DNA of 64,000 bases from NCBI GenBank assembly GCA_018714385.1, contig DVNL01000014.1, positions 25,959 through 89,958 of the forward strand, in the 5' to 3' direction. Position 1 is the first letter of the stretch. Every line of letters begins with the position of its first letter. A model generated the notes under the pieces. The model was not told the DNA's origin and searched no databases. It worked only from the letters and a program-made list of their open reading frames with translations. Below, in pieces: positions 1 to 58,637 of this stretch. This stretch comes from Candidatus Enterosoma merdigallinarum (GTDB lineage Bacteria > Bacillota_I > Bacilli_A > RFN20 > CAG-288). The translations under genes were made by a program, and so were the position numbers.

Positions 1-2748
1 GAAAGAGACCCTCCTTTCGTCGAGGAATGCCGGCCACAGGACTTGCGGCAAGCCATATAACCTATTGAGGACATAGAAATCGCGCTTCACTGCGGAAGAG
101 GACGGGACGTTGTCCCTCAGAATTCGATCGATCAGAAGGAAAGAAGCCCTATCCTCCGAAGGCAAGAAGAAGTCCTTGCCCTCCGGCGTATCGCAATAGG
201 CATAGAAGAAATGGCCCGGGGCGACGAACAAGCCGCTTGAAGAATCCCGGAAAGAGAGGGCAAACCCCCGGATCCCACGATCGTTGTCCGCTTCGGATAG
301 AGGGTGGACTTCTTCTTTCATGGCATCGAAAACCCCTGTCCCGACAGACACGAGATAGGAAAGGGTCACCGGAGCGAATTCGTCCGAGAAATCCGCTCCC
401 GAAATCTGTCTTCCCTGTCTTCGATAAAAGTCCATCGCCTTCGTTCTGAGACCATAGCGTGCTTTCGCCAGATGAAACTCCAAGGACGTTCCGATGGCGG
501 CGCACTCGGGATCGACAAGGCAATCGACATCATGCCAGCGGGCATCCGGAAGAACAAGAACAGAGGAGGGGAGAGAACCATCCCCGACAAGATAGATGCC
601 TTCCCGCCACAAGGCCCGGGACGTCAGAAACTCCAAAAAACCAGGGACTTGGCACAATTCCGCCATTTTATCTTCCGAAAAGAAGTCGATGTCCTCCCGG
701 AAAGAAAGCTGAGGGACGACCTTTTTCGTCGGGTCTATTCCCAAACGCTCGAAGGCCTCTTTTCCAAGTCCGGTGACGAATGTCGCTTTCTCGAAAGGAT
801 CCGACGGATCGAGGAAGACCTTGCCGCGCCTTTCAAAAAAGCGCACGCCAAGATAGGACGGATTCTTTCCATGGAAGAAACGGTCATGGATGGCCTCCAA
901 GGAAGCCAAGGTTTCCCTTTCGCTTTCCGGGAAATAGAGATGTCCTTCCTCTTCGATGCAGATCGTCCTTTCCGTCATGAAGATCGACATGGACGGACTC
1001 TCTTCGTCTTCAATATCCATATAGCGCTGGCCGGATAAAGGCTGGACAGGAGAATCGATGTCCTTCTTGACATCCGGAAGACAATCCAGAAGGATCTCCT
1101 TGAGCAGATCGACGGCGAGGCCATTCAATTCCGAGACTTGGGAAGGATCGACATGGAAGAGATCTTCCGCGATGGTGAAGGAGGAATGGCCGTCGAGCAT
1201 TCTGCGGACGAATTCAAGGATCTGCAGATAGTTCCCTTCCTTGTCCTGGGAGAGAAGACGAAGCATCTCCCCGCCTTTTTTGTTTGTCTTTTCCTGGGCA
1301 AACAATCTGTCGATGAAAGGCTTCAAGAAAGCATAGGAAAGGGGATTCGAAATCTGCTTTTGTATCCCTTTCTCGAGATAGAGACGACAATCGAGATGAT
1401 CCAAGGAAAGGTCCTCATAGAGGAAGAAAATACCATGCCTGGCAAAAAGATAAGGCAAGAAATCGTAGGAATTTCTATCGGCAAGAAGAACCTCGCCGAA
1501 GTCGTCTAGAACCAAAGCGGGAAGGCCGCTGGAAAGATAGTCGAAATCGTCGACGTCCTGGAACAAACGGACAAAGGCCTCGGCATCCCCTCTTCGGAAG
1601 GAAAAATAACGGACGCTTTCCAAGGCGGGATAGGGGACTCCCATCCATCTCAAGAAAAGCTCCGGATAAGGTGTCATCCCCTTCTTCTCAAAATGGAAAC
1701 GAACCGCATCAAAGGCTATTTTCAAACCGGCGATATCTTGTCTTGAAAAGCAATATTTTCCTTGTTTTTCATGGATCTCTCGTTTCCCGTCTTTATTTAT
1801 TATTTGAAGGTCGCTTGTCGCATGCATAATGAAGTTTGACCCGACATAGAAATAGCGATAACGATAAGGGAACCATCCGGAGTCGTGGTCCAAGACCGTC
1901 CTTTTGAACAGGGGCATGATGCCGTACTGCCTTACAAAGAAAGTGTTGACCATATCCTTGAGAAGGGCCGAAAAATAGTTTCTCAAGATCAACTTCGCTC
2001 CAAAACGAACATCATCGAGTTCTCCCCTGTCGTTTCTGAAGGCAAAGCGGATCCTCTCCTGCGGGGACATCCCGTCGACGAATGCCGCATAGCGCCTAAA
2101 TCCCTTCGCATCGAAATCCGTCCCGGGGATTCTAAAGTCCAAAAAGAGCTTGCTCGGCGAGACCTTTTCCAAGAATTCTTTCGGGGCCTTGTCCGGATCG
2201 ATAAAGACGGGATAGTCCGGGAACGATTCGATGTCGTCGGAAATCAGCTTTTCCACGTTGGGGAAATAGATTCCTTTCGACACAAGGTAATTGCAAAGCC
2301 CGACCACGCAGTAGTCATTCCCTCTGAGGATGTCGTAAGTGACAGCCTTTCGATCGATCTCGCCATATCCGAAGAAAAGGCCTTCCTCGAAGGTGATTCT
2401 TCCCAAGACGGCATCCGGCGTCAGCCAAATGGGGTTTCCTGCGCCATCCCTGGCCTGGAAGACCTCGACGGGGAGGCCGAGGACCTGCTGGAAACAGAGC
2501 AGCGTATTGCTCTCTTCGTCGGCAAGGCCGAATTGAGCATCAAAGACAGGATACGTCTTTTCCTTGAGGATGAATTCCTTATAGAAGCAAAGACGCTCTC
2601 TCAGGGAAGCCTCCTCTTCCTTGGCCATGTGGAAAGAGCCGTCATCGCCGACATAGACGTCATAGAAGGCACCGGAAAGGACTTCCCGATAGCGTCCGTA
2701 GACATCTCTCTCCTTCGTGGTCAAAAACAGCTCCGGGTAGAATTCCAT
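1..2748 (-). CDS. Giant uncharacterised protein B, N-terminal >=916 aa (gene runs off the left edge of the window)
   Basis: Absent from the ORF track because it has no stop in the window. Manual translation from ATG 2748..2746 (MEFYPELFLTTKERDVYGRYREVLSGAFYDVYVGDDGSFHMAKEEEASLRERLCFYKEFILKEKTYPVFDAQFGLADEESNTLLCFQQVLGLPVEV...) stays open to position 1 (...PAFLDERRVSF). The + ORFs 304-1038, 1138-1509 and 1885-2778 are its codon-aligned antisense shadows. It starts 4 nt after the stop of the preceding gene. Confidence 0.75.
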   Translation of the reverse strand, partial: MEFYPELFLTTKERDVYGRYREVLSGAFYDVYVGDDGSFHMAKEEEASLRERLCFYKEFILKEKTYPVFDAQFGLADEESNTLLCFQQVLGLPVEVFQARDGAGNPIWLTPDAVLGRITFEEGLFFGYGEIDRKAVTYDILRGNDYCVVGLCNYLVSKGIYFPNVEKLISDDIESFPDYPVFIDPDKAPKEFLEKVSPSKLFLDFRIPGTDFDAKGFRRYAAFVDGMSPQERIRFAFRNDRGELDDVRFGAKLILRNYFSALLKDMVNTFFVRQYGIMPLFKRTVLDHDSGWFPYRYRYFYVGSNFIMHATSDLQIINKDGKREIHEKQGKYCFSRQDIAGLKIAFDAVRFHFEKKGMTPYPELFLRWMGVPYPALESVRYFSFRRGDAEAFVRLFQDVDDFDYLSSGLPALVLDDFGEVLLADRNSYDFLPYLFARHGIFFLYEDLSLDHLDCRLYLEKGIQKQISNPLSYAFLKPFIDRLFAQEKTNKKGGEMLRLLSQDKEGNYLQILEFVRRMLDGHSSFTIAEDLFHVDPSQVSELNGLAVDLLKEILLDCLPDVKKDIDSPVQPLSGQRYMDIEDEESPSMSIFMTERTICIEEEGHLYFPESERETLASLEAIHDRFFHGKNPSYLGVRFFERRGKVFLDPSDPFEKATFVTGLGKEAFERLGIDPTKKVVPQLSFREDIDFFSEDKMAELCQVPGFLEFLTSRALWREGIYLVGDGSLPSSVLVLPDARWHDVDCLVDPECAAIGTSLEFHLAKARYGLRTKAMDFYRRQGRQISGADFSDEFAPVTLSYLVSVGTGVFDAMKEEVHPLSEADNDRGIRGFALSFRDSSSGLFVAPGHFFYAYCDTPEGKDFFLPSEDRASFLLIDRILRDNVPSSSAVKRDFYVLNRLYGLPQVLWPAFLDERRVSF

Positions 2749-2752
2749 TTTT

Positions 2753-5700
2753 CTAGCCCCCCAAGATCTCTTCCTTGAAGAGATAAGAATCGACAAGCTT
2801 TCCGACGAGGAACGTGAAGAAGCCGAGGATGCGATTCATCACCGGCTCGACATCTGTATGCCTCTCCCTCAGAACCGGGAAGAAAGAAAGGAGAAGCTCA
2901 CGCAACGTCTGTTCCCTCCCGACGGCCTCGAAGAAACGGACAAAGATCGACCGATCCGAACCATAGGCGGCAAGAATAAGAGTCGAAGCCTCCTTGGAAA
3001 ACTGATCGCCGCCGGACTTTGAGACGAATGTCTTCAAAAGGCTCTGAAGGAGACCGTCGCTAGGCATGAGAGAGGAAGACAATGTCGTCGGAATGCCCAA
3101 CGTGGAATAGAGGAAATAAGGAATCTTCCTGTCGAGGAAGGCATCCAGGCTATAGACATAGTTCGGTTCATAAAGGACATCCCTGGGAAGGACGAAGTAG
3201 GGGAGGAGAAATCCGTCTTTCGCCATCGCGTTCCGCATGGAGACAAACTCGGCATCCCTTCCCTCTTTCCGAGGAAGCATGGAAAGAAAAGGATAATAAG
3301 GGTTCAAGCTTGGGACGGCCTTCTTCTGACAGCGATGGCATATCCCGCTTTCAAAGCGCAGCCTCGACATCAAGACATCCACGTTGGTCTCATTCAGAGG
3401 AAAGTCCCTCAGGGCATGGACGGCAGCAAAAGGAAGGCCGGCCAGGCCGAGGACAAGGACCGTCAGAAGGCACGGATCCATGTCCCTTTGTCCATAGCTG
3501 CGCAAGGCCATCTCGATCAGATCCTTCATCGCCTTCTTGTCGCTCTCGCAGAAAAGAGGGACTTCATCGGGAGAATCGGCATAGCCGTCGAAGACGCGGC
3601 CAAGGAAGACATAGGGATGCGGCAGTCCGGAAACATAGACGGCATCGACATAGGTGTCCGTCTCAAGACCGGGTATCGAAAGCGCCCCCTCTTTGTAGGC
3701 ATAGGAAACGGAAAGGCGATTGTAAAAGAAAGCAAGTCGAGAGAAGATCCAGGGATTGTCAAGGATAATACCATACAGATCCGGCGTGCAGGAGAATAAT
3801 GCCGAACGAATAGAGGCGATATCATTTTTCAAGAAGTCCAGGATAGAGTCGGTAATATCCATCCATTGGAAATAGGGGGTGAAGAAGCAGGAGAATATCG
3901 CCATCAATGTCGTGGAATCCAATTCGACGTATTTCCTGAGAGCCGGAGCGCTCTTCTTTTCATCGACGTCCAGGATCCCGCGATAAGTCTTGTTGACGAT
4001 GCTTTCATAGAGGTCTCGCGCGCCGAGCTCCTCATTCCGGATCTCACCGATATGAAGGCCTTTCTTCGAGGCGCTTGCCCGTACATAGGTAAACATCTCG
4101 TTTCGCCTCGAGGCCGGGTTGGGGAAGATGACCTCATGATAATCCGGGACGGCATCGTTGCAGAGATGGCAGACATGATCCCGATAAAGGATCTGGGAGG
4201 AAAGTTCCTTCCGGCAATCCATCCTGTGATAGACGTTCTCGGGAAGCCCGAGATGGTTCAGAATGTAGAGATTCCGGCGGACGATCCCTTCCTCTCCCTT
4301 CCCCTTTGCCTGATGGAAGGAATCAAACCGCCTGCCATAGAAAGCGATCCTCTCTTCGATAGCCTCCTTCTGGCAAGAACAGAGGACCGGCTTGGCAAAA
4401 TAGCTCTCCCGGAAGGAGTAGGCCGTCTGGCCATAAACGACATAGGGCAAGGGAAGATCGGGCTCATAGGTCTCCGTCGGCTTGGTCAGACAATCCAGAA
4501 GAGACAGGATATACGTGTCCTTCTTCCGGATGGCCTGTTTCCGAAAGTCGCTCCGGACGATGGAAAAGAGGCTTGAGAGAACATAGGCGAAGAAAGGATA
4601 GGTCTCCTTGTCCATCGGCCTGCGGACATGGAAGTAGGCGAGAGTGGCATCCGTCGCCTCCTGGGCGGTGGCGTCCGAGAAAGAAGACAGATAATAGGAC
4701 AAAGCCGTGCCCAGGGACTTCTTGTCCAGTTCCTGCAGCAGTTTGAGAAGGGCAGGGAAATTGTCTTCCCCGCGCTGGAGGCAATAGGAAAGATAGTATT
4801 TCTCCACAAGCGAGCAGGAAGGCCTGTCAAGAAGGGAAGAAAGCTCAGGACATCTCTTCGCCGGAAAAATCTTGATGGTGATCCTTTCCTGAATGCCGTC
4901 CTGCCTCGAAAGATAGTAGACTCCCTGGTCGAGAAGCCGGCGGAGAAGGAAGGCAAGAAGATGCCTCCGATTTCCGGGAACGTAGGAATAGTTCCAATCG
5001 AACCGTTTGACGGAAAGGAAAACCTCCCTCTCGTCGACCCCGTCTTGGAACGGGAGCTTGGAAAAGAGATTTTTCGACGTCAGCGAAGGATCGTCCTGTA
5101 TCATGCGAAAGCCTTCGAAGGGAAGGCCGAGCCGGGAATAGAGAAGAACCGGAGAAAGGTTCTTTTCGCTTTTGAGAGCATCCTTGTATAGAAAATGGAT
5201 TCTCTTCCTGTCTTTCTTGGAAAAGAAGAAATGTTCGCCGTCCTTCGAATACATCTCCGCATGGTAGGAAGAAAGGCTGTACCAAGGTCCGTCCTTTTCT
5301 TTCCGGACGGTCAAATAGGACAGTTTGTTGGTATAGACGTTCACGACATCGCGGAAATAATCGTCATAGAGCATGTTGACGATGGCGATGACGTATTTCC
5401 TCAGAAGAACGGCATAGGCCTCATTTCGAGAAGGATCGTCGGCAAGCTTGGAAAGCCTGGGGTCGGGGATGCGATCGATAAAATAAAGCACCTGCTCGTT
5501 TAGAGAAAAAGCGTCGAACCGGCGCATATATTCCAAAAAGGAAGCATCGCATTCGCCTTTCATCAGATCAATGGCAACGCGAGCGCCAGAAAAAGAGGCA
5601 TAGGGCTTCAAAATCTTCGAGTCGATCCTCTTTTCATCGAAGAAGACGGGATACTGGGGATCGTTGAAACGCAAGAACCTTTTCGTCTCGTCATAAAGGA

Positions 5701-6145
5701 AGAAAACACCCCTCGAAAGAAGATAGACCTTGAAATCGTCTACCATCCATTTCTTCCCGAGCATGGAAAAGACAGAGAAGTAGCTGTCCCGCTTGAGACG
5801 GAAGAGTCCCTTCCGGAAATGGAGCTGGGAGAGGATATCCTTTCCTAAATCCAGATCGTCGAAAACGACATCCGGAAGACCGAGGACCTGTTTGAAGACC
5901 CGTCTCTCCGTGCCCTTCAGATAGGTCGTCTCCCCTTTCTGGACATAGGGATACATGGCCATGTTGGCGATATGCTCGTCATAGAAAAACAAGGCTTCCT
6001 CGATGCTTTTCTTGTCATCGCTATCGAAGTAGTAGAGCCCGTCATCGGCCAAAAAAGCCACATGATAGAATCCGAAAAAGGCCGCATCGTACCCTTTGAC
6101 GGAATGAAGCTCGATTTTCGTGCCAGGAGGAAGGATCTGGCTCAT
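2753..6145 (-). CDS. Giant uncharacterised cytoplasmic protein A (1130 aa), paralogous to protein B at the N-terminus
   Basis: 1139-aa ORF in the track whose first codon is GTG. The preferred start is ATG 6145 (MSQILPPG...), preceded by AAGGAGG and forming an ATGA overlap with the stop of the protease gene. No signal peptide, TM segment or known catalytic motif recognised. Contains an internal duplicated Cys/CHxC module. Confidence 0.8.
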   Translation of the reverse strand: MSQILPPGTKIELHSVKGYDAAFFGFYHVAFLADDGLYYFDSDDKKSIEEALFFYDEHIANMAMYPYVQKGETTYLKGTERRVFKQVLGLPDVVFDDLDLGKDILSQLHFRKGLFRLKRDSYFSVFSMLGKKWMVDDFKVYLLSRGVFFLYDETKRFLRFNDPQYPVFFDEKRIDSKILKPYASFSGARVAIDLMKGECDASFLEYMRRFDAFSLNEQVLYFIDRIPDPRLSKLADDPSRNEAYAVLLRKYVIAIVNMLYDDYFRDVVNVYTNKLSYLTVRKEKDGPWYSLSSYHAEMYSKDGEHFFFSKKDRKRIHFLYKDALKSEKNLSPVLLYSRLGLPFEGFRMIQDDPSLTSKNLFSKLPFQDGVDEREVFLSVKRFDWNYSYVPGNRRHLLAFLLRRLLDQGVYYLSRQDGIQERITIKIFPAKRCPELSSLLDRPSCSLVEKYYLSYCLQRGEDNFPALLKLLQELDKKSLGTALSYYLSSFSDATAQEATDATLAYFHVRRPMDKETYPFFAYVLSSLFSIVRSDFRKQAIRKKDTYILSLLDCLTKPTETYEPDLPLPYVVYGQTAYSFRESYFAKPVLCSCQKEAIEERIAFYGRRFDSFHQAKGKGEEGIVRRNLYILNHLGLPENVYHRMDCRKELSSQILYRDHVCHLCNDAVPDYHEVIFPNPASRRNEMFTYVRASASKKGLHIGEIRNEELGARDLYESIVNKTYRGILDVDEKKSAPALRKYVELDSTTLMAIFSCFFTPYFQWMDITDSILDFLKNDIASIRSALFSCTPDLYGIILDNPWIFSRLAFFYNRLSVSYAYKEGALSIPGLETDTYVDAVYVSGLPHPYVFLGRVFDGYADSPDEVPLFCESDKKAMKDLIEMALRSYGQRDMDPCLLTVLVLGLAGLPFAAVHALRDFPLNETNVDVLMSRLRFESGICHRCQKKAVPSLNPYYPFLSMLPRKEGRDAEFVSMRNAMAKDGFLLPYFVLPRDVLYEPNYVYSLDAFLDRKIPYFLYSTLGIPTTLSSSLMPSDGLLQSLLKTFVSKSGGDQFSKEASTLILAAYGSDRSIFVRFFEAVGREQTLRELLLSFFPVLRERHTDVEPVMNRILGFFTFLVGKLVDSYLFKEEILGG

Positions 6146-7728
6146 TGGGCCTCCTTGAAATGGAGGACGCACGAATCCCCATCAAGAGATTCGACCTCGA
6201 AACCATATCGAGGAACGCTTCCATCATCAAATTTGAAATCGTCAAACGTCTCTTCCGGCAAGAAGAACGCATCCCCCTCCTGGAAAAGAGAGGAGTTTCC
6301 AGCCATCGTAACATTGGACTCGAATGTTGTCTTCCTGCCGTCGGCAGAAAGAAGGGAAATCAATCTGCCGCGATAGAAAGGAGACTCGGAATCGTCCATG
6401 CTGGTATCCAGGCAATAGGAACGCGTATTGGAATAGATGTAATAGAACAAAAAGTTGCCGCTGTCCTCCAAAGCATCGGAAATCTTGTCGTAGCATTCCC
6501 CATTCCACTTGAATCCCATATCGGAGAGCCTGTCGGGAATCATCTTGCCGACACGGGAATCGACATGATAGACGAGTATGCCGGACTGGGAGAACATCTT
6601 GAGATTGTTGTAGGCAACCCTCGAGTCCATGGAGTTGACGCCATCCGGCGTATAGTATTCCAGGATGAGATATTCATCGAAGGCCGTCCCGTTGTAGTCT
6701 ACTTCCCCTTCCTTCTCGATAGGGAGTATGAGACAGTCGCCATAGTTGGCAAAGGAATCCAGGGTCAGACGATAATCGCTTGCCTTCAAGGTCTCCTCCG
6801 TGACGACGATCGGATCGACCCAGTCGAGGACGAACTTGGAATAGGCATCGTGATCGCCGATATTGTAGTCCATCATCACGGCGCCTCCGGTCGGCGAATC
6901 CATGTTTTCAACCATGTCAGCATCATAGGAATAATAGTCATCGAGTCCCATGAGATGTCCTGTCTCGTGCACGAAGGTATGGGCATCGCCGTTTGTCGTC
7001 GATGTGCTCGTCGAAAAGCTGTTCCGGGTCAGAAAGTCGACGGACGCCCAGGAATAGGAAGAAGCAGAATAACCGGAGAAATCATTCTCTCGTCCTCCCA
7101 CTGCCCAAGTCGTGAAAGCCCAGAAGAGATCCGACCCCTCGTCATACGAGGCGGAATAGACCATCCAAACAGCATCGAGATAGCCATCGCCATTGGCATC
7201 GAAACGGCTGAAGTCCATCCCGTTGTCTTCCAAGACACGCAAGGCGGAAAAGAGAATGTCCTGGGTCAGCTCCGACGTCCCTTCCCTCTTCGCCCGTTCC
7301 GCGACTTCCGCGGCGGTGATGTCAAAGTGGATGACATCGCTCACCTCGCCATCGATTTCAAGCTTGCCATAGCTTGACTTGTCATAATAGGACCGGACAG
7401 ATTCCCATGAGGTTTCATCGCTGTCGCCGAAAAAGGTCTTTTCCATCCGGGTCAGTTCGACCTGGCTGAAGGGACAGTCGGAGAATTCGATCGGAAGCAC
7501 GAGGATCGAGCTTCTGCCCGTGGACGGCATGAAGACCTGACCATTCCAATAGCCGAGATTGGTGACATTGAGATTCTCGGAGCGATAGTCCGAGGGATAG
7601 TCCGGCTCACGGAAAACGGCATCCTCCCCAGGATTTCCGGAGCTGGAAGAGCCTTGGAAAAAGAGGCAGGATGAAAGGATGGGCAAAACGAACAAAAGCG
7701 AGAAAAATGCTTTCTTTTCCTTTTTCAT
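6142..7728 (-). CDS. Zinc metalloprotease lipoprotein, M6 (immune inhibitor A-like) type
   Basis: HExxH motif in HTFVHETGHLMGLDDYYSY resembles the M6-family HExGHxLGLPDxY. The N-terminus MKKEKKAFFSLLFVLPILSSC has a signal peptide plus lipobox. Start moved to ATG 7728, which has GGAGA upstream; the track start at 7794 is over-extended. Confidence 0.7.
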   Translation of the reverse strand: MKKEKKAFFSLLFVLPILSSCLFFQGSSSSGNPGEDAVFREPDYPSDYRSENLNVTNLGYWNGQVFMPSTGRSSILVLPIEFSDCPFSQVELTRMEKTFFGDSDETSWESVRSYYDKSSYGKLEIDGEVSDVIHFDITAAEVAERAKREGTSELTQDILFSALRVLEDNGMDFSRFDANGDGYLDAVWMVYSASYDEGSDLFWAFTTWAVGGRENDFSGYSASSYSWASVDFLTRNSFSTSTSTTNGDAHTFVHETGHLMGLDDYYSYDADMVENMDSPTGGAVMMDYNIGDHDAYSKFVLDWVDPIVVTEETLKASDYRLTLDSFANYGDCLILPIEKEGEVDYNGTAFDEYLILEYYTPDGVNSMDSRVAYNNLKMFSQSGILVYHVDSRVGKMIPDRLSDMGFKWNGECYDKISDALEDSGNFLFYYIYSNTRSYCLDTSMDDSESPFYRGRLISLLSADGRKTTFESNVTMAGNSSLFQEGDAFFLPEETFDDFKFDDGSVPRYGFEVESLDGDSCVLHFKEAQ

Positions 7729-7729
7729 G

Positions 7730-8071
7730 TCAATCTCCATAGTCCGATCCGCGGCTCTTGTCCTCGACGAGGACACGGGCCTGATCGGCGACATCGATGG
7801 CCGTCAGATAGATGGCATGCTCCGTCTCCACCAACGGGTTGTCCTCCTGGCCGATGAAGACGACCTTCCGATTCTTCCTCACGATCTCGTCCATCTTGTC
7901 GAGGATGGCCTGATACCCCTCCGGTCGGAGCATTTTGTATCCCTGGAGATACGTATAGAATTGCGGCTCGACGTAAAAGATGGAGCCATCCGGATTGCGA
8001 TAGCACGTCGCAAAGCGATTGCGAAGGTCGATCAGGACTTCGCGATCCTTCCATTCTTCATAGTGTTTCAT
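7730..8071 (-). CDS. Hypothetical protein, 113 aa
   Basis: Starts MKHYEEWKDREV... with a strong GAGGAGGA RBS. The stop is 1 nt before the protease ATG, and the ATG is 1 nt after the upstream stop. No family recognised. Confidence 0.6.
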   Translation of the reverse strand: MKHYEEWKDREVLIDLRNRFATCYRNPDGSIFYVEPQFYTYLQGYKMLRPEGYQAILDKMDEIVRKNRKVVFIGQEDNPLVETEHAIYLTAIDVADQARVLVEDKSRGSDYGD

Positions 8072-8072
8072 A

Positions 8073-8447
8073 TCAATCCTCCTCGGTGCCTTGCAGACAA
8101 CACAAGGCATTCTCTATCGACTCGCCGATCCAGACGAAGTCCCTTCTCAGCGATGCCATGCGAACCTCTGCCATCGCTTCTTGACACGTCTTGCCGATGG
8201 CGGCCAAAAGCCTGCCATCGACAATGCCGTCATCGTCCGTCATGGCGAAGGCCTCAAGCATGGCCATGCCTCTTTTTATCTCCACAATCCTGTCCTTGAA
8301 TGCAAAGGCCTCGGAATAAGGCCTCTTTCCCTTTTGCTTTCTCGTCATCAACTTGCAAAGCATGGCAAGAACAGGAAGAAGAGACAATGCCATCTTCTTT
8401 TTGTCGCAATCGGTTTGTCGTGAAAGAAAGCAATAGTTGTCTTGCAT
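8073..8447 (-). CDS. Hypothetical protein, 124 aa
   Basis: Starts MQDNYCFLSRQTDCDKKK... The first 110 codons of track ORF 8073-8777 overlap the upstream gene out of frame and are discounted. GGAGA lies upstream of ATG 8447. No family recognised. Confidence 0.55.
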   Translation of the reverse strand: MQDNYCFLSRQTDCDKKKMALSLLPVLAMLCKLMTRKQKGKRPYSEAFAFKDRIVEIKRGMAMLEAFAMTDDDGIVDGRLLAAIGKTCQEAMAEVRMASLRRDFVWIGESIENALCCLQGTEED

Positions 8448-8449
8448 TT

Positions 8450-8791
8450 TTATTCTCCGTCGATCATTTCGTATAATGTCAAAAGAAAATTTTTGTCGGC
8501 GATGAGTTGTCTTTTGACAACGCCTTTTGACTTCTCTATCATCCTTTCGACATAAGACAGGGAAAGCTGATAACCTTCCTTCGTCTTGGAAAGGATGTCG
8601 GAATCCTCCTCTTTCTGCCCACGAGATGCCGCAAAGGCCTTGGCGTCCCTTTCGGCCATTTCCAAAAAGAGCGCCGCCGCCTTTTCCCGCTCGTCTTCCA
8701 AAAGAGAACAGAAGGGCAACAAAGAGACAAAGCAGGCACAGCCGCAAAAATAGTCCGTCTCTTCCGATTCCAGACATTCAAGGATCGTCAT
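8450..8791 (-). CDS. Hypothetical Cys-rich protein, 113 aa
   Basis: Starts MTILECLESEETDYFCGCACFVSLLPFCSLL... The ATG forms an ATGA overlap with the sirtuin stop (8788-8791), and GGAGGG lies 5 nt upstream. Codon usage looks genuine. Confidence 0.6.
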   Translation of the reverse strand: MTILECLESEETDYFCGCACFVSLLPFCSLLEDEREKAAALFLEMAERDAKAFAASRGQKEEDSDILSKTKEGYQLSLSYVERMIEKSKGVVKRQLIADKNFLLTLYEMIDGE

Positions 8792-9522
8792 AGCATCCCT
8801 CCGAAGAGTTCCCCTGCCTTTTGATGGATGATCAACGAGGCTCTCGCATCCTTTGCTTCCGGGTTCTTGTCGATCAAGACGAGATTCCGGCCTTGGAAAT
8901 AGTTCAAGAACCCGGCGGCAGGATAGACGACAAGAGAAGTTCCGCAGACGATGAGAAGATCCGCTTCCATGATGGCGATCATGGCTTTCGTCATCACCCT
9001 GTCATCCAGAGGCTCCTCATAGAGGACAACGTCCGGCTTGACGATGCCGCCGCAATGCGGACAGCGGGGGACAATGTTCGGACTTCCCGCGACGAAAGAG
9101 GCATCATATGGCCTATGGCACTCCATGCAGAAATTGCGGTGGATGGATCCGTGGAGCTCGATGACGTTACAACTTCCCGCCTTCTGGTGGAGACCGTCTA
9201 TGTTCTGCGTCACGACGGCCTTGAGCTTCCCCTCCTTTTCGAGCTTGGCAAGATAAAGGTGGCAAGGATTCGGTTCCTTGTCCAGAAGGAGCATCCTTTC
9301 GCGATAAAAGCGATAGAACTCTTCCGGCTCCCTCATGAAGAAGTGATGGGAGATGATCTCTTCGGGATTGTAACGATATTTTTGGTTGTAGAGACCATCC
9401 TTGCTGCGGAAGTCCGGGATTCCCGACTCCGTGGAGACGCCGGCACCACCGAAAAAGACGACGTTCGGACTGTCGTCGATAAGCTTCATCAAGGCTTCCC
9501 TGTCTTGTTCGATGCCGGTCAT
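8788..9522 (-). CDS. cobB: NAD-dependent protein deacylase, SIR2 (sirtuin) family
   Basis: Carries the canonical motifs GAGVSTESGIPDFR, TQNIDGLH and ELHGS, plus the Zn-ribbon cysteines CMEC...CPHC. RBS is GGGAGG. Confidence 0.9.
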   Translation of the reverse strand: MTGIEQDREALMKLIDDSPNVVFFGGAGVSTESGIPDFRSKDGLYNQKYRYNPEEIISHHFFMREPEEFYRFYRERMLLLDKEPNPCHLYLAKLEKEGKLKAVVTQNIDGLHQKAGSCNVIELHGSIHRNFCMECHRPYDASFVAGSPNIVPRCPHCGGIVKPDVVLYEEPLDDRVMTKAMIAIMEADLLIVCGTSLVVYPAAGFLNYFQGRNLVLIDKNPEAKDARASLIIHQKAGELFGGML

Positions 9523-9544
9523 TCTCGCCTCCCGATACCCCTAT

Positions 9545-9572
9545 ATTATAGGCCGAAATGCCGGATTTCCAA
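9545..9572 (-). promoter_or_regulatory. Putative sigma-A-type promoter of the sirtuin operon
   Basis: Minus strand reads TTGGAA (9572..9567), 16-nt spacer, TATAAT (9550..9545), 22 nt upstream of the ATG. Confidence 0.55.
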
Positions 9573-9585
9573 ATCGAGAAGACCA

Positions 9586-9612
9586 CGAAAAAGGGGCTGC
9601 CGAAGCAGCCCC
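9586..9612 (-). terminator. Rho-independent terminator of the PFOR gene
   Basis: Minus strand reads GGGGCTGC-TTCG-GCAGCCCC followed by TTTTTT, about 20 nt after the nifJ stop. Confidence 0.8.
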
Positions 9613-9631
9613 TGGGATTGCGGAATAGACC

Positions 9632-12600
9632 TTACTTCTCGAGTCCGCCGTAGCGGAGGATGTCGTGATAGCGCTGCTCGGCGAGCTTCTCGCTCTTGGT
9701 GAGAAGTTCCTCGGCGTGATCCGGATTGACACGGAAGAGCTGAGAGTAGCGGGTCTGGGTCATGACGAAGTCGCGGAACTTGCTGAAGTCGGGGTTGCAG
9801 GACATCGTCAGAGGGCTCTTGCCCTGTTCGCGGAGACGCGGATCGTAGGTGTAGGTAAGGAAGTAGCCGCAGTCGACGGCCATCTTCTCCTGTTTGATGG
9901 AGTTTCCGAGTCCGCCCTTGATGCCGTGCTCCTGGCAAGGCGCATAGCAGATGATGAGGGACGGTCCGTTGTAGCTCTCGGCCTCGGTCATCGCCTTGAT
10001 GGCCTGGGTCGGATTGCTTCCGAGGGCGATCTGGGCGACATAGACATGATCATAGGCCATGGCGATGAGGCCGAGATTCTTCTTGGCGGTCTTCTTTCCG
10101 GAAGCGGCGAACTTCGCGATCTGTCCGGTCTGAGAGGACTTGGAGGCCTGTCCGCCGGTGTTGGAGTAGACCTCGGTGTCGAGGACGAGGATGTTGACAT
10201 CGTCATCGGTAGCGATGATGTGATCCAATCCGCCATAACCGATATCATAGGCCCATCCGTCTCCGCCGACGATCCAGACGGACTTGTCGAGCAAGTCGTT
10301 CTTCATGGCTAGCAAAGCCTTGATGTCGCTATTGCCGGAAGTCTGGATGAGGTTGAGCATCTTGGGAAGGATCTCGCGGACGTGCTTCCTGTTCTTGATG
10401 TTGTTGAGATAGTCGACGAGGATATCCTTGAGTTCGGGCTCGACCTTGTCGAGGGCGCCGTTGATGATGTTGACGATCTTGGCGAGCTTGAAGTCGGTGG
10501 CGACTCTCATGCCGTAGCCATACTCGGCGTTGTCTTCGAAGAGGGAGTTGGCCCAGGCAGGTCCGTTGCCGTTCTTGTCGCAGACAAACGGGGTCATCGG
10601 AGTGGAACCGTTATAGATGGAGGAGCATCCGGTGGCGTTGGCGATCAGCATGTCCTGACCGAAGAGCTGGGAGGCAAGACGATAGTAAGGCGTCTCGCCG
10701 CAGCCGGCACAAGCGCCGGAGACTTCCTGATAAGGTCTCTTGAGAGCGACTTCCTTGACCGTTCCGGCAGGGAAGAGACCGGTTCTGGGTTCAATCTCGT
10801 TGTAGAGGATCTTGGCAGCCTCTTCATGGGCGAACTGGCTCTTGGCCTCGACGAGGGTGAGGGCCTTGTGCTGCTCGAAGACGGTCTTGCCGTTCTCGTC
10901 CTTGACCTCGTTGCCGTTCTCGTCCTTCTTAGCGACGCGCTTTCCAGGGCACTGGTTGACGCAAAGGCCGCAGCCGACGCAATTCATCGGGGAAACCTGG
11001 ATACGGAAGTAGAGTCCCTTGACGTTGGGGCCGCCCATCGCAGGAAGGACATCCATCCTCTCACTTTCGGGAAGCTTCTCGATTTCTTCGTCATTGAGAA
11101 GGAAGGGACGAATGGTGGCATGCGGGCAGACAAAGGCGCATTGGGCGCACTGGATGCAGTTGTCCTTGTTCCAGACAGGGACTCTGTCGGCGATGGCTCT
11201 GTCTTCGCGAAGAGTGACGTTGGGCTCCATGGTGCCATCTTCGAGTTCCCACTTGCGGAAGGTGGAGACAGGGATATCGTAGCCTTCGAGGTTTCCGATG
11301 AGAGCGACGTAGCTGTCCCAATAATCGTCTCCGGTCAGTTTGACGGTGTTGCTGACAGGCAGATCGGCCCAGGAAGGATCGACGGCGACTTCGCGAAGCC
11401 CTTCGGTTCCCTGGTCGATGGCCTTGTAGTTGAGTTCGACGACATCCTGACCCTTCTTTCCATAGGTCTTGGCCGCGAATTTCTTCATCCATTCGTTGGC
11501 TTCGCTATAGGGCATGATCTGCTGATTGAGGTAGAAGAAGGAAGCCTGGAGAATGGTGTTGGTATGGCGTCCCATTCCGATGGAAAGGGCAATCTTGTTG
11601 GCATCGATGACATAGAACTTGGCATGCTTGTCGGCAAGCTGCTTCTTCATTCTGTTGGGGAGGCTGTTGTAGAGCTGCTCGTCGGTCATGTCGGTGTTGA
11701 GGAGGAATGTTCCGCCTTCCTTCAGGTTCTTGAGCATATCGAACTTGAAGATATAGGAATCGAGAGAGCAGGAGACGAAGTCGGCATTCTCGACATAGTA
11801 GGTGGAATGAATCGGAGTCTTGCCGAATCTCAAGTGAGAGCGGGTGACACCACCGGCCTTTCTGGAATCGTAGGCAAAATAGGCCTGGGCATATTGATGA
11901 GTCTCGTCGCCGATGATCTTGACAGAAGACTTGTTGGCAGAGACGGTACCGTCGGATCCCAATCCGTAGAAGAGGCAGGAGGTGTAGTCGTGAGGAACGG
12001 TGTATGTCTCATCGACAGGAAGAGAAAGGTGGGTGACATCATCATCGATACCGATGGTGAAACCGGTCCAGGTCTTCTTGGCGTCGAGGAAGTCATAGAC
12101 GGCCTTGATCTGGTTGGGCTGAGTGTCCTTGGAAGAGATGCCGTATCTTCCGCCGAGGACTTCGATATCGGTCCTTCCGCCCTGCTTCAGGGCAGCGACG
12201 ACATCGAGGTAAAGCGGCTCGCCGTCGCTTCCAGGCTCCTTCGTCCTGTCGAGAACGGCGATCTTCTTGACGGAAGCAGGAATGGTGGCAAGCAAATGCT
12301 TGACGGAGAAAGGACGATAGAGATGGACCTTGACGAGGCCGACCCTCTCTCCCTTCTTGAGCAAGTCATCGATGACTTCGATGCAGGTCTCTGTGACAGA
12401 ACCCATGGCAACGATGATCTTGGTCGCCTCGGGATCGCCATAGTAGACAAACGGAGCATAAGGACGTCCGGTCGCATCGCTGATCTTCTGGAAGTACTTG
12501 CAAGCGACGTCGACGATGTTCTCCTCATGGAGGTTCTGGGCTTCGCGTCCCTGGAAGCAGATGTCATCGTTTTCGGCTCCGCCCCTGGTGACGGCATGGC

Positions 12601-16607: not shown

Positions 16608-17695
16608 AAAAGCTCATCCTGAACAACTTCCGTTCCTATGCCCATGCCGAAGTCGACTTCCCGCCAGAAGACATCTACCTGACCGGAAACAACGGCCAGG
16701 GCAAGACAAACGTCCTGGAAGCCATCCACTATCTCACTCTCGGGCGAAGCTTCCGCAAGGCGGAGGACAAAGACTTGATCCGAGACGGGACGGAGGAGGC
16801 CTCTATCTATCTCATCTATCACGATGAAAGCGACGGCAAGGATCACGTCCTCTCCTGCCTGATCGGACGCGGCTACAAGGTCTTCTCCATCGACGACAGA
16901 AAGGCCAAGACGCTCTCGGAGATGCTCGGGAAGCTCCTCGCCGTCCACTACGATCCCTCTCAAGTCTTCTTCTTCAAGGACGAGCCGGGCGATAGACGCA
17001 AACTGCTCGACGAGACGCTCAGCCAGCTCGACGGAAAGTATCTCTATGCGATAGCACGATACAAAAAGCTTCTGAAGGAAAGAAACGTCGGCCTTGCCCA
17101 AAACTACGACGTGGATGTCCTCAACGTCCTGAGAGACCAGCTATCGAATCTCGCCTACCGGATCGTGACGGAAAGAAAAAGGCTCGTCGCCTTGCTGTCC
17201 AAGAAAATGGAAAGGATCTATTCCGAACTCTTCTCCAAGGAGAAAAGCCTATCCCTTCTATACCGGACAAACTGCCCGCTCGACGATGACCAGGAAAGCT
17301 TCGTCCAAAACGCCACGGCACTCTTCGATGCCAACCGTTCGTTGGAGAACCTGAGGAAAACGACATTGATCGGTCCTCATCGAGACAATCTATCCGCCCT
17401 CCTCGACGGCAAGGACGTCGCCGCCTTCGGAAGCCAGGGGGAAAATCGCCTGGCATCCCTGAGCTTGCGTCTAGCCATCCGGGAGCTGTTCCACGAGAAA
17501 ACAGGTAAGGAGCCATTGCTCCTGTTGGATGACGTCGCCTCGGACCTGGATGCGACGCGTTGCCAAAACCTGCTTCAAAGCATAAAGGGGCACGGACAGG
17601 CCTTCGTCACCGGCGCCCAGATACGGGAAGGATTCGAAGACTATCAGATCTATGTCGCCTCAGAAGGAAGTCTACGGAGGAAAGAAAATGACTGA
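16598..17695 (+). CDS. recF: DNA replication and repair protein RecF
   Basis: N-terminus MFVKKLILNNFRSY, Walker A GNNGQGKTNVLEAI and a C-terminal LLLDDVASDLD motif. Confidence 0.92.
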   Translation: MFVKKLILNNFRSYAHAEVDFPPEDIYLTGNNGQGKTNVLEAIHYLTLGRSFRKAEDKDLIRDGTEEASIYLIYHDESDGKDHVLSCLIGRGYKVFSIDDRKAKTLSEMLGKLLAVHYDPSQVFFFKDEPGDRRKLLDETLSQLDGKYLYAIARYKKLLKERNVGLAQNYDVDVLNVLRDQLSNLAYRIVTERKRLVALLSKKMERIYSELFSKEKSLSLLYRTNCPLDDDQESFVQNATALFDANRSLENLRKTTLIGPHRDNLSALLDGKDVAAFGSQGENRLASLSLRLAIRELFHEKTGKEPLLLLDDVASDLDATRCQNLLQSIKGHGQAFVTGAQIREGFEDYQIYVASEGSLRRKEND

Positions 17696-19853
17696 CGAAG
17701 AAAAGAGAAAGGCTCTGGACCTGGAGACCGAAAAACAGAGAAGAAAGGTCGAAGAGGTAGCCAAGGCAGAAGCCAAGGCCGCTCCCGCAGAAACGCGCAA
17801 AGTCGAAGAAGTCCCGGAAGAAACCTTCGATGAAGAACATGTCGAGCACGATGACCTCTCCGAAGCCCAGGAGGAAAAAGCCCTCAAGGCCAAAGAGGAG
17901 TACACCGGAAAAGATATCGAGATTCTTCAGGGACTCGAAGCCGTTCGGCAAAGACCCGGCATGTATATCGGAACGACATCTTCCAAAGGTCTCCACCATC
18001 TCGTCAGAGAAGCCGTCGACAATGGCATCGACGAAGCCTTGGCAGGCTATTGCAAGCACATCCGCGTGACTCTCCTTCCGGGCACGAAAGACAACCCCGT
18101 CAATCGCGTCCGCGTGGAAGATGATGGAAGAGGAATCCCCTGCGACATCAACGCCCAGACCGGCCTTTCCACGGTCGAGACGGTCTATACCGTCCTTCAC
18201 GCCGGCGGAAAGTTCAACGACAAGACGGGATACAAGATCTCCGGCGGTCTTCACGGCGTCGGTGTCAAGGCCGTCAATGCCCTTTCCACATATGTGGAAG
18301 TTACCGTCTATCGCGACGGCAAAATCCATCATATCGCCTTCGAGAACGGCGGCAAGACGGTTGCCCCTGGCCTTCAGGTCATCGGAGAATGCCCTTTGGA
18401 GAAGACCGGCACGACCGTCGAGTTCACGCCGGATCCTTCCATTTTCAAAGAGACGGTCACCTTCGACTTCAACACCATCAACACCTATCTCCGCCAGACC
18501 GCCTATCTGACAAAGGGACTCGATCTCACGCTTGAAGATCTCCGCAATCCAGATAATCCTCTCCATTCCCACTACTGCTTCGAAGGCGGCATCAAAGAAT
18601 ACGTCGCCTATATCAACCAGGAAAAGGACAAGGTCTTTGAATCCATCCCCTATGTCGTCGGCGGATCGAAGGTCGATGTCGGGGAGAGCACCACGACGAT
18701 CATCGTCGAATGCGCCATGCAGCCGACAAAAGGCGGCATTCTCTCGATGAACTCTTTCTGCAACAACATCCGGACGACCGGCGGCGGAACGCATGAGGAA
18801 GGATTCCGTCTCGCCATAGGAAGAGAACTCAACAGCTACTTCCGTGCCAAGGAATGGCTCAAGGACAACGACCAAAACTTCAAGTCCGAAGACTGCCTGG
18901 AAGGCCTGACGGTCATCCTCTCCATCAAGCACAGCAACCCGCAATACGAAGGACAGGTCAAGGACAAGCTCGGAAACGACGAAGTCCGCAAGGTCGTCTC
19001 CTCCATCGTCGGCGACTATCTCAAAGAATGGTTGATGGAGAATCCCAAGGAAGGAAGGCTCTGGTACGAAAGGGTCGCCCTCGCCTTCAAGAGCCGTCGC
19101 GCCGCCGAAAAGGCCCGCGCACAGGCCCAGGGAAAGCTCTCTGCCGGTGCCGGCATGCCCGACAAGCTCACCGACTGCATCTCCAAGGACCCCAAGGAGA
19201 GAGAACTGTTCATCGTCGAGGGTAATTCCGCAGGCGGTTCCGCCGTCCAAGGAAGAGACGCCAGGACGCAAGCCGTTCTCCCCTTGAGAGGAAAGATCCT
19301 GAACGTCGAAAAGGCTCCTGCCCTTCGAATCGAAAAGAACGCTGAGATCAACAATATGGTCACGGCGATCGGCGCCGGGCAGGGCGAAAACTTCGACGTC
19401 AGCAAGATCCGCTACGACAAGGTCATCATCATGACCGATGCCGATGTCGACGGCAGCCACATCCGCATCCTTCTCATGACTTTCTTCTATCGCTTCATGC
19501 GTCCCTTGGTCGAGACCGGCCATCTCTACATCGCCCAGCCGCCTCTCTATCGAGTCGCCTATCAGGGCCACTACTATTACGCCTTCAACGACGACGAGCT
19601 CGAAGTCATCAAGAGCAAGCTTCCGCAAAACGCCCGTTACGGCCTGCAGCGTTACAAAGGTCTCGGTGAAATGGATCCCGACCAGCTCGACTCTACGACG
19701 ATGGACAAGAACCACAGAAGAATGTATCAAGTCACCATCGATGATGCCCAGGCGGCAAACGATGCCCTCATCGACCTCATGGGCGAAAACGTCGAACCCA
19801 GGAAGGACTACATCACCGCCAACGCCAAGTTCGTCAAGAACCTGGACATCTAA
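17688..19853 (+). CDS. gyrB: DNA gyrase subunit B, with a Lys/Glu-rich N-terminal extension of about 65 aa
   Basis: Motifs [56 protein letters not shown] and [12 protein letters not shown]. Start set to ATG 17688 after GGAGGAAAG. Confidence 0.95.
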
Positions 19854-19867
19854 GGAGGCAAGGAACA

Positions 19868-23482: not shown

Positions 23483-24799
23483 ATGCTCGATGTGAAATAC
23501 GTTATCGACAATCTCGAAGAAGTCATCGAAAGACTCTCGACAAGGACGGGAGACTATTCCTATCTTCGCCAATTGCCGGCCCTCGAAGAAAAGAGGAAGG
23601 AACTCATCCTCAAGGCGGACCGTCTCAAGGCGGAAAGAAACAGCCAATCCAAAGAAATCGGAAAGCTCAAGGCCCAGAAGAAGGAAGAAGAAGCCAAGGC
23701 CTTGATGGAGAAGATCAATTTCGACAAGGACGAGATCGCCCGTCTCGACAAAGAGAGAGCGGGGGTCGAAGACGAGATCCACGAAATCATGCTCAAGACC
23801 CCGAACATCCCGGACAAGTCCCTTCCCATCGGAACCGACGACAGCTTCAACCGTCCCGAAAAATACTGGGGGGATCCGACCGTCTTCCGCTTCAAGCCCA
23901 AGGCCCACTGGGACATCGGCCAGAGGCTCGGCTACTTCGACTTCGACCGGGCGGCCAAGGTCTCGGGTCCCCGTTTCACCTTCTATCTCGGCGCCTTCGC
24001 AAGACTGGAGCGCTCTCTTGCCGCCCTCATGCTCGACACCCATGCCGCAAACGGCTATACCGAGGTTCTGCCTCCCTACATGGTCAACACCGCATCCCTG
24101 ACCGGATCCGGCCAGCTTCCGAAGTTCGCCGACCAGGCCTACAACACGAACCCCGGCGATTTCTGGATGATTCCGACCGCCGAAGTCCCCGTCACCAACT
24201 ATTATCGCGATGAGATCCTCTCCGCCGAGGACCTTCCGAAGTGGTTCTGCGCCTACTCCTCCTGCTTCCGCGCCGAGGCTGGAGCTGCCGGAAGGGATAC
24301 CCGCGGCATCATCCGTCAGCATCAGTTCCAGAAAGTGGAGCTGGTCAAGTATTGCCTGCCCGAGAACTCGTTCGCGGAGCTTGAGAGCCTGACGGAGGAG
24401 GCCGAAAGGATCCTCGAACTGCTCAAGCTGCCCTACAGGAGAGTCTGCCTCTCCACGGGAGACGTCGGCTTCTCCTCGGCCAAGACATATGACCTCGAGG
24501 TCTGGATGCCCTCCTACAACGACTATGAGGAAAAGGACGGCCTCTTCGTCCCCACAACGAAGAACTACAAGGAAATATCTTCCTGCTCCAACGACACCGA
24601 CTATCAGGCCAGAAGAATGAACATCCGCTTCAAGAGGACAAAGGACAGCAAGACAGAGTACGTCCACATGCTCAACGGCTCCGGCCTTGCCGTCGGCAGA
24701 ACGGTCGCCGCCGTCATCGAGAACTACCAGAACGAAGACGGCTCCATCACCGTCCCGGAAGTGCTCCGTCCTTACATGGGCTGCGACATCATCAAGTAA
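23483..24799 (+). CDS. serS: Seryl-tRNA synthetase
   Basis: N-terminal coiled-coil arm ([14 protein letters not shown]...), class II motifs [21 protein letters not shown] and [15 protein letters not shown], and [27 protein letters not shown]. Track start over-extended. Confidence 0.93.
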
Positions 24800-24811
24800 T
24801 CCCTGTCGGAA

Positions 24812-24837
24812 GGGCCCGATTCGTCGGGTCCTTTTTT
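24812..24837 (+). terminator. serS terminator
   Basis: GGGCCCGA-TTCG-TCGGGTCC followed by TTTTTT. Confidence 0.8.
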
Positions 24838-24841
24838 ATCC

Positions 24842-24868
24842 AAAAAGCCGTCCCCTTTCGAGGACGGC
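24842..24868 (-). terminator. Terminator of the ABC importer operon
   Basis: Minus strand reads GCCGTCC, 8-nt loop, GGACGGC, then TTTTT, 20 nt after the stop of the binding-protein gene. Confidence 0.75.
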
Positions 24869-24887
24869 ATTTTGTTGTTTCTGCTTT

Positions 24888-26513: not shown

Positions 26514-26572
26514 TTTTCGGAATGCTCCTTTTCGTTGCTGCCAGATAAGGATTATTCTGGCAACACATAAGT

Positions 26573-41589: not shown

Positions 41590-41779
41590 TATGCACGGAA
41601 CAGCTTTCAAACCGTTCGAAAGCGTTTTCAGTTACAGTGTGAGATATTTGTACGTTGTCTTTCCTTTTTGCTTGTTCTAATTATTTTTTCGGTTAAATGG
41701 CAATAAATGAGAAAACAGCGAAGACACTAGAAAATTATTAGGATGACCAAGAGAGCATTTTTGAATGCAAGTGTCTCGC

Positions 41780-41808: not shown

Positions 41809-41853
41809 AATATTGTTTCTATTCGAAACCTTTTTCTTGGAGGTGACCTATTG

Positions 41854-57008: not shown

Positions 57009-58637
<1,629 letters not shown>

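Follow-up and report, generated by a model that had tools for sequence, protein, structure and literature searches.

The left end of a stretch of DNA from Candidatus Enterosoma merdigallinarum (contig DVNL01000014.1, positions 25,959 to 89,958), whose 64,000 nucleotides we refer to as the window, raises the question of what a sirtuin is doing at the head of a run of genes that ends in two giant proteins. An earlier note, made from the letters alone, had described seven tightly packed minus-strand open reading frames at positions 1-9572 and had singled them out as the window's best candidate for an undescribed module. That description is accurate down to the coordinate of every junction. The genes, termed G1 to G7 in the order of their transcription, constitute a real, conserved and translationally compact operon, which combines a housekeeping-type sirtuin (G1) and a predicted exported M6 protease (G5) with five proteins without described relatives (G2, G3, G4, G6 and G7). 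As to its function, we tentatively favour a working model in which G2, G3, G4, G6 and G7 would form a cytoplasmic complex under the control of the co-translated sirtuin.

A conserved operon in uncultured Bacilli

The first gene of the operon, encoding the sirtuin G1 (8788-9522, 244 amino acids), overlaps with G2 (8450-8791, 113 amino acids) in an ATGA at 8788-8791, and G3 (8073-8447, 124 amino acids) starts after a gap of 2 nucleotides. A TGAtATG junction at 8069-8075 connects G3 to G4 (7730-8071, 113 amino acids), a TGAcATG junction at 7726-7732 connects G4 to G5 (6142-7728, 528 amino acids) and a second ATGA at 6142-6145 connects G5 to G6 (2753-6145, 1130 amino acids), all on the minus strand. 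G7 (1-2748, minus strand) follows after 4 nucleotides and is open at the edge of the window. Its earlier description as a protein of at least 916 residues is correct for the part that is visible in the window, and its full length can now be given as 1117 residues from a 98 % identical protein (P0017), which places about 200 residues beyond the window.

Relatives of the operon were identified by a pattern scan for G6 in one genome per GTDB species, which requires exact matches and thus provides a lower bound for their number. The scan retrieved 18 species-level metagenome-assembled genomes (MAGs) of uncultured Bacilli with about 19 loci (numbered with the prefix L), deposited under titles such as 'Bacilli bacterium', 'Candidatus Enterosoma', 'uncultured Firmicutes' and 'Erysipelotrichaceae'. 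As far as our searches reach, the operon is confined to one clade of these bacteria, with gut, rumen and digester as sources. In every related locus of sufficient length the genes are co-localised in the same order, from the sirtuin through G2, G3, G4, G5 and G6 to G7, with G2 being recovered at all related loci once a profile search was used, while on either side of the block at least four arrangements of flanking genes are seen. The sirtuin gene is adjacent in all 19 loci in which the upstream side is present, and its overlap of 4 nucleotides with G2 is found in 17 of 19. Most of the remaining junctions are equally narrow, with median distances across loci of about -8 nucleotides between G2 and G3, 2 between G4 and G5, -1 between G5 and G6 and 3 between G6 and G7. 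The junction between G3 and G4, a gap of 1 nucleotide in the window, tends to be wider elsewhere, at a median of 70 nucleotides, with a spacer of 49-167 nucleotides in most related loci and one of 480 nucleotides in L004. G7 can be regarded as the last gene of the operon, since the gene downstream of it is convergent in L001, L003 and L004.

The seven proteins differ in their conservation, with median identities to the window of 65 % for the sirtuin, 27 % for G2, 27 % for G3, 79 % for G4, 46 % for G5, 34 % for G6 and 24 % for G7. Their pairwise identities co-vary across loci (Spearman coefficients with G6 of 0.72 for G1, 0.80 for G5 and 0.94 for G7), which agrees with a joint inheritance of the block. 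Gene fusions are found between G3 and G4 in L001 and L006 and between G2 and G3 in L004, and they suggest that the three small proteins act together.

With respect to the host genomes, the genus 'Candidatus Enterosoma' belongs to the order RFN20 in GTDB, and NCBI taxonomy places it in Caryophanales incertae sedis. One related MAG consists of a single contig of 2.08 Mb, and in a genome of that size an operon of roughly 12.5 kb would make up about 0.6 %. A complete operon of the Bacilli type is also contained in L014 (CAVCCX010000029.1), whose title, 'Bacteroides uniformis ... cleanbin', probably reflects mis-binning or mislabelling.

Search for known families

By sequence comparison, membership of a known family holds for G1 (CobB) and G5 (M6) only, and the other five are not members of any described family. 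Searches of Pfam, NCBIfam, PADLOC and the sequences of the PDB gave no significant match for the proteins that had remained unrecognised in the earlier note (G2, G3, G4, G6 and G7), and PDB sequence-profile searches with these five and with the phage family described below gave nothing below an E-value of about 0.1. PADLOC retrieved nothing for any of G2 to G7, and full-text searches of the literature did not return a description of such an operon. Foldseek searches with confident structural models, available for G6 and G4, were equally without match. The proposal of an undescribed module is thus supported by both the lack of a family assignment and a gene order that is kept while the flanks change. 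These five families without described relatives have remained linked to a sirtuin across deep divergence within a clade of small-genome, uncultured gut bacteria.

A housekeeping-type sirtuin and its place in the operon

G1 had been described as a canonical Zn-ribbon sirtuin, and profile searches agree. The protein matches PF02146 over the full length of the model (E = 1e-56, positions 1-180 of 180), it passes the NCBIfam equivalog NF001752 with 315.7 bits at a cut-off of 221, and its translation contains all motifs of the family, including GAGVS at 26-30, His124 in the sequence ELHG and the Zn-ribbon cysteines C132/C135/C154/C157. These features define G1 as a canonical CobB-type lysine deacylase with a predicted activity dependent on nicotinamide adenine dinucleotide (NAD), which looks catalytically intact. 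PADLOC provided partial matches only (Dsr1 with E = 0.013 at 11 bits and Aga SIR2 with E = 0.022), and the Dsr1 model of NCBIfam scored 11.8 bits at a cut-off of 1400. Judged by these models, G1 is not a defence-type SIR2, and the caveat that it might be a housekeeping sirtuin stands.

Two observations concern sirtuin genes in other loci. Small same-strand genes are located upstream of the sirtuin in L003, L008, L009, L011, L013 and L022. Those in L003 (5560-6395), which code for Zn-ribbon/TM2-domain proteins, are 5 nucleotides away from it, and in the genomes concerned transcription could begin further upstream. In L023, at 1115-1995, a sirtuin homologue for which no gene was called is split over two frames (profile positions 7-166 and 149-240), either as a frameshifted pseudogene or as a consequence of an assembly error, about 8 kb from a pair of G4 and G5 homologues outside the clade.

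A housekeeping protein at the head of an operon might be there by hitch-hiking, as a CobB that shares a promoter with unrelated, lineage-specific genes G2-G7 and does not act on their products. We regard this as the main rival of the working model, with a probability that is low and close to that of the model itself. The idea is in line with the passing of the housekeeping equivalog model and with the much stronger conservation of G1 compared to G2, G3, G6 and G7 (24-34 % identity), and it agrees with the wide distribution of related sirtuins without the module and with the occurrence of G4 and G5 outside the clade without a sirtuin. The proximity of other small genes to the sirtuin of L003 further indicates that its membership of the operon may be loose. 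Conversely, mere sharing of a promoter does not readily account for a sirtuin that is adjacent in each of the 19 loci and that has kept its 4-nucleotide overlap in 17 of them despite several changes of its upstream neighbours.

The M6 protease and the small proteins

The assignment of G5 as a lipobox-bearing HExxH protease of the M6/InhA-like type is confirmed by a match to PF05547 above its cut-off (28.5 bits at a cut-off of 22), whereas the score for TIGR03296 (106.8 bits) is found just under the cut-off of 110.8. The protein of the window contains a lipobox LSSC21, the sequence HETGHLMGLDDYYSYD and a DxNxDG calcium-loop-like motif. A HETGH(L/M/I)xGLDDYYSY block is present in 20 of 20 full-length homologues, and a signal peptide with a lipobox L[ST]SC near residue 21 in nearly all of them. 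G5 is thus predicted to be a zinc metalloprotease of the M6 (InhA-like) type that is exported as a lipoprotein. A single-sequence search of the PDB gave nothing at E ≤ 1, and sequence comparison points to no solved structure for this protein.

The gene preceding G5 codes for the best conserved of the seven proteins. G4 is an alpha/beta protein whose family comprises 87 clusters and whose acidic C-terminal tail, EDKSRGSDYGD, is kept down to 44 % identity. An AlphaFold (AF2) model of G4 is confident (predicted local distance difference test (pLDDT) of 90.1, predicted template modelling score of 0.81) except for the tail, which is disordered with a pLDDT of about 52-55, and a Foldseek search of the PDB with this model gave no match at E ≤ 0.001. 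Divergent homologues are encoded in other Firmicutes outside the clade, where they are found beside hydrolases. In L024 such a homologue is in tandem with a homologue of G5 (34 % identity, E = 4e-85), and in L023 it is divergently paired with one. In L025 and L035-L037, a G4 homologue with the EDKSRGSDYGD tail is followed at a distance of 2 nucleotides by a cytoplasmic alpha/beta hydrolase (Hydrolase_4/Abhydrolase_1). The pairing of G4 with a downstream hydrolase outside the module implies that it predates the seven-gene block. In L035, where the pair of G4 and alpha/beta hydrolase is located at 6001-7250, and also in L025, L036 and L037, a FTCD_C gene is found two genes upstream of the pair. 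As a candidate fold for G4, we also considered a Nim/PNPOx-like barrel, which was rejected, with a match to NimABCDEF of E = 0.014 and 15 bits at a cut-off of 260 and no support from fold prediction and fold search.

The constant neighbourhood of G4 and G5 would suit a cytoplasmic inhibitor or chaperone, which would hold the exported protease with its invariant tail placed in the active site and would have no relation to the rest of the operon, by analogy with staphostatin and staphopain. Where start calls are reliable, nearly all loci have 1-12 nucleotides between the two genes, a pair of this kind is also found outside the clade, in L024 and L023, and the tail is disordered, invariant and ends on -YGD. 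Still, we find such a role unlikely, as an identity of 79 % for G4 against 46 % for G5 would be unusual for an inhibitor and as two genomes carry a fusion of G4 with G3. The proposal is also weakened by the homologues with the same tail that are paired with a cytoplasmic alpha/beta hydrolase.

The two remaining small proteins are both helical. G2 is acidic, carries the motif SxYYCGSACLLSLLP and is shorter in the window (113 residues) than in most relatives (about 160 residues). G3, which is found in all related loci, carries the motifs LLxxLPxLxMLxKLxxRKQxGKKPFS and EIxxxSLKxDF. Neither protein matched a family in Pfam, NCBIfam or PADLOC or has a PDB relative by sequence, and their comparison in hhalign (74.5 % probability, E = 2.7e-5) suggests that G2 and G3 are probably paralogous. 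A likeness of SxYYCGSA in G2 to PGGGSA, as in a FTCD_C-like cyclodeaminase domain, was not supported by profile tests, with no match of PF04961 to any of 18 G2 homologues even at E ≤ 10 and a probability of 0.2 % in hhalign against one FTCD_C protein.

A repeated Cys/His module in the giant proteins

The 5.8 billion proteins searched contain no more than 16 clusters of G6, none of them named and each with a length of about 1130 residues. In hhalign, G6 and G7 align over 1047 columns with a probability of 100 % (E = 2.9e-40), the halves of the giants resemble each other (about 98 %), and so do quarters of G6, with values of 96 % for 6a and 6c, 98.5 % for 6c and 6d (units 3 and 4) and 94 % for 6b and 6d. 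By these alignments, the two proteins are full-length paralogs, each with a four-fold internal repeat, in G6 of a beta-meander/helix/'LGLP' module and an accompanying helical region. An AlphaFold (AF2) model of G6 with a pLDDT of 85.2 shows four times a short beta-meander followed by helices with an 'LGLP' turn, and Foldseek searches of PDB and BFVD with this model returned no match at E ≤ 0.001.

Two of the units in G6 contain Cys/His motifs. Unit 3 (residues 556-735, encoded at 3941-4480 on the minus strand) shows the pattern LPLPYV..YSF..LCSCQK..LGLP..CHLCN, with LCSCQK...CHLCN near residues 589-662, and unit 4 (residues 833-950, encoded at 3296-3649 on the minus strand) the pattern FCxCDK...GLPY...ICRRC, with FCxC...CxxC near residues 866-939. 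C589, C659, H660, C662 and C866 are invariant in the family. Unit 4 of the window's own G6 is partly degenerate, with FCESDKK in place of the motif and its second Cys changed to Ser. The motif resembles a zinc site, which we regard as putative. In contrast, G7 has lost the cysteines, with none conserved and YFDxxD where G6 has YLCSCQK; it is acidic and fast-evolving, on the same four-repeat plan as G6. The earlier characterization of the giants as proteins without signal peptide, transmembrane segment or nameable catalytic motif thus remains valid for the first two features, with no signal peptide or convincing membrane segment being found, but has to be revised for the third in light of the two motif copies in G6. 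The sole strongly hydrophobic stretch of G6, at 891-909, includes the conserved GLP motif of unit 4. Membrane anchoring of G2, G3 or G6 was considered and rejected, as their hydrophobic stretches are either short or part of a conserved structural motif of the repeat unit.

An exhaustive search with a G6 profile retrieved 176 proteins at E ≤ 0.001, among them about 37 full-length representatives of G6, the G7 family and many proteins of 150-650 residues, which match the profile only in its region of about 560-700. An alignment of these short proteins (A6) defines one family, PHROG 19778, with a length of about 350 residues. Its members combine an N-terminal domain of about 165 residues, with the pattern LPxPxVHYP..YLCSC.K.AI.NYI...F.D.LCH.CN..P..YGWYI, with a C-terminus of the pattern IENEVR...W..ET...GLELDIYI..GIEYQGxQH..WGG..RD..K. 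In hhalign, residues 563-732 of G6 (unit 3) align with columns 10-174 of A6 with a probability of 99.6 % (E = 4e-24) and residues 841-948 (unit 4) with 98.4 % (E = 4.5e-15), and G7 matches A6 with 91.9 %. On the strength of these alignments, units 3 and 4 of G6 are homologous to the N-terminal domain of the PHROG-19778 nuclease-like proteins. No part of G6 or G7 aligns with A6 beyond column ~174, and the nuclease-like domain (GLELDIYI...GIEYQGxQH) is not found in them. The giants thus have one domain in common with PHROG 19778 without being members of this family.

The C-terminal domain of the family matches PHROGs 559, 9084, 3339 and 7140, which carry HNH, homing and intron-encoded endonuclease annotations, and shows a weak match to DUF2726. 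Proteins of the PHROG-19778 type are encoded in SPbeta-like Staphylococcus phages, in plasmids of Bacillus, Priestia and Haladaptatus, in an integrase/capsid element and in an element with a TraG-like protein. Another example is gene 29 of the Clostridium phage phiCT19406A (L033:5995-7083, a Clostridium tetani prophage), directly upstream of the small terminase subunit. This gene is annotated merely as hypothetical, and its C-terminal domain alone matches 286 phage records. In other proteins, the Cys/His module is fused to TerB_N, CpXC or HRDC domains, and a PADLOC search with ten module-bearing relatives provided one weak match, of SngA to the TerB_N fusion. A phage origin of the operon itself was considered and rejected, as a scan of IMG/VR with the G6 alignment returned no relative and a comparison of PHROGs with six of the operon proteins gave nothing significant.

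The kinship with proteins of mobile elements, together with the presence of a SIR2 domain, could be taken to indicate an anti-phage or conflict system, in which G6 and G7 are sensors derived from mobile-element nuclease modules and the sirtuin, by consumption of NAD, and/or the protease serves as effector. In favour of such a system are a SIR2 domain beside very large, fast-evolving proteins, the occurrence of the G6 module in proteins carried by prophages, SPbeta-like phages, plasmids and an integrative element, and the weak match of SngA to a TerB_N protein fused to the module. We nevertheless regard it as very unlikely. PADLOC detected nothing for G2-G7 and partial matches of 11 bits for G1, whose small size and intact Zn ribbon are those of a canonical CobB, not of a divergent defence SIR2; the operon lacks an ATPase or nuclease domain and its protease is a predicted exported lipoprotein; and the spread within a single clade fits co-inheritance as a block in a core chromosomal setting, with no copy in IMG/VR. 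The least probable of the alternatives is a role in the envelope or in secretion, with G6 and G7 as released or surface proteins that are processed or matured by G5 and exported with the help of G2-G4 as chaperones, which would suit the predicted extracellular location of G5, the overlap of its gene with the start of G6 and the absence of sortases and sometimes of peptidoglycan in some related orders of uncultured Bacilli (PMC10868615), to which the present clade may belong, but conflicts with the lack of a signal peptide or transmembrane segment in G2, G3, G4, G6 and G7, of any transporter or membrane protein in the operon and with Cys/His zinc-site motifs that are typical of cytoplasmic proteins.

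Transcription signals and chromosomal setting

Upstream of the sirtuin gene, a strong intrinsic terminator of the PFOR gene (9592-9613, minus strand) delimits the operon; it has a stem of 9 pairs (7 G-C) with a loop of 4 and is followed by TTTTTCGTGGT. Just after this terminator we find the SigA-like promoter candidate proposed earlier, TTGGAA-16-TATAAT (9545-9572, minus strand), with 10 of 12 consensus matches and a -10 box that ends 22 nucleotides upstream of the sirtuin ATG. Although the site exists as described, it does not by itself exceed chance, with 6 promoter-like sites observed in a consensus scan compared to 5.4 expected. The candidate gains positional support from related loci, since a -10-like box recurs at the same position, 18-24 nucleotides before the sirtuin ATG, in at least 9 of 17 of them. 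A Shine-Dalgarno sequence GGGAGG precedes the ATG.

The window is part of an ordinary chromosome, with genes for PFOR, a P-type ATPase, gyrB, gyrA, uvrB, ftsH, feoB and yfhO. Adjacent gyrB and gyrA (17652-22507, plus strand) are located about 8 kb from the operon, followed by UvrB (34352-36436), FtsH (41743-44619) and FeoB (47982-50384, minus strand) and by a YfhO-family membrane protein of 1137 residues (52368-55781). Two further open reading frames on the plus strand, 24687-26570 (627 residues) and 56934-58697 (587 residues), are without a Pfam match at E ≤ 1e-5. No Rfam family and no tRNA was found anywhere in the window. Weak terminator-like hairpins on the minus strand of positions 1-10000 number 24, about twice the 11.9 ± 4.2 obtained with shuffled sequence; except for the PFOR terminator, all of them have short stems within coding sequence and their excess is probably an effect of composition.

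A working model

In the working model of a cytoplasmic G2-G3-G4/G6-G7 complex under the control of the sirtuin, G6 and its degenerate paralog G7 would assemble into a large cytoplasmic hetero-complex, with G2, G3 and G4 as its accessory subunits. The co-translated sirtuin would set the state of this complex by the removal of acyl groups from lysines of at least one operon protein. G4 and G5 would be a pair of earlier origin, taken up into the operon, that links the cytoplasmic complex to proteolysis at the cell surface. A nucleic acid is suggested as ligand of the repeated module, on the sole basis of the homology of the module to a domain of phage homing-endonuclease-like proteins. The model draws on a gene order that is kept with changing flanks, the conserved overlap between G1 and G2 and the other narrow junctions, the gene fusions, the co-varying identities and the intact sirtuin, on the paralogy and repeats of G6 and G7 and the homology of their module to the phage and plasmid family, and on the G4-G5 pair outside the clade and the ordinary chromosomal setting.

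Several observations weigh against this model. The conserved overlap between G1 and G2 could merely reflect the difficulty of separating overlapping genes, and the spacer of 49-167 nucleotides between G3 and G4 in most relatives could house an internal promoter. The link of the sirtuin to the operon proteins is putative, as are any activities of the five proteins without described relatives. The predicted export of G5, in view of the lack of an export signal in the other six, excludes that all products of the operon form one physical complex, and the pairing of G4 with an alpha/beta hydrolase elsewhere implies that G4 is not specific for M6 proteases. Concerning the proposed ligand, the reverse single-sequence test is weak, with E = 0.15 for phrog_19778 against one member of the G6 family, and generic DNA binding by G6 and G7 was rejected, as it is unsupported by the net charge of their modules, which are neutral to acidic with about -2 to -5 per 100 residues.

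A bolder version, which we consider quite unlikely, would be a sirtuin-centred regulatory machine of a new type, with a CobB hard-wired to a giant hetero-complex of G6 and G7, whose eight copies of the module would be borrowed from phage nuclease-like proteins, and to three small adaptors, either to act on DNA or the nucleoid or as a NAD-linked conflict system with a housekeeping-type sirtuin. In its DNA- or nucleoid-acting form, the arrangement would be loosely analogous to Sir2 with its large partners Sir3 and Sir4.

Comparison with known systems

The closest relatives of G1 are CobB/Sir2 deacylases, with which it shares a full-length SIR2 domain, the GAGxS motif, the catalytic His and the four-Cys Zn ribbon, whereas its gene differs in heading a conserved seven-gene operon and in overlapping with the next gene. 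To our knowledge, there is no CobB operon of such composition. If it were true that the sirtuin acts on its operon partners, G1 would be a rare bacterial CobB with dedicated, genetically linked substrates. G5 resembles peptidase family M6 in the match to the catalytic domain, in HExxH followed by GLDDYY and in its export signal, and differs as a lipoprotein of about 530 residues that scores under the cut-off of TIGR03296 and that is always preceded by G4.

With the SIR2 defence systems (Thoeris ThsA, DSR1/DSR2, SIR2-HerA and SIR2-pAgo), the operon has in common a SIR2 domain beside large partners. Here, however, the sirtuin is of the housekeeping CobB type, neither Pfam, NCBIfam nor PADLOC detects a TIR, HerA or Argonaute partner, no PADLOC model is matched and the setting is neither a defence island nor a mobile element. 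A different precedent is the SirTM/macrodomain/GcvH-L/LplA2 operon of Firmicutes, which Rack and colleagues reportedly described in Mol Cell in 2015. Its sirtuin is a class M ADP-ribosyltransferase with a macrodomain, a lipoyl carrier and a lipoate ligase as partners, domains that have no counterpart here, whereas the logic of a sirtuin acting on a small protein of its own operon would, by analogy, be the one proposed in this study.

Finally, the PHROG-19778-type proteins share with the giants their N-terminal module, which by profile comparison is homologous to units 3 and 4 of G6 and more weakly to a unit of G7. In contrast to these proteins, G6 and G7 are three times longer, contain the module four times, are chromosomal and appear co-inherited with the block. 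The repeated Cys/His module is thus a new domain common to G6 and to the widespread phage and plasmid proteins of PHROG 19778, and solving the function of either would inform the other.

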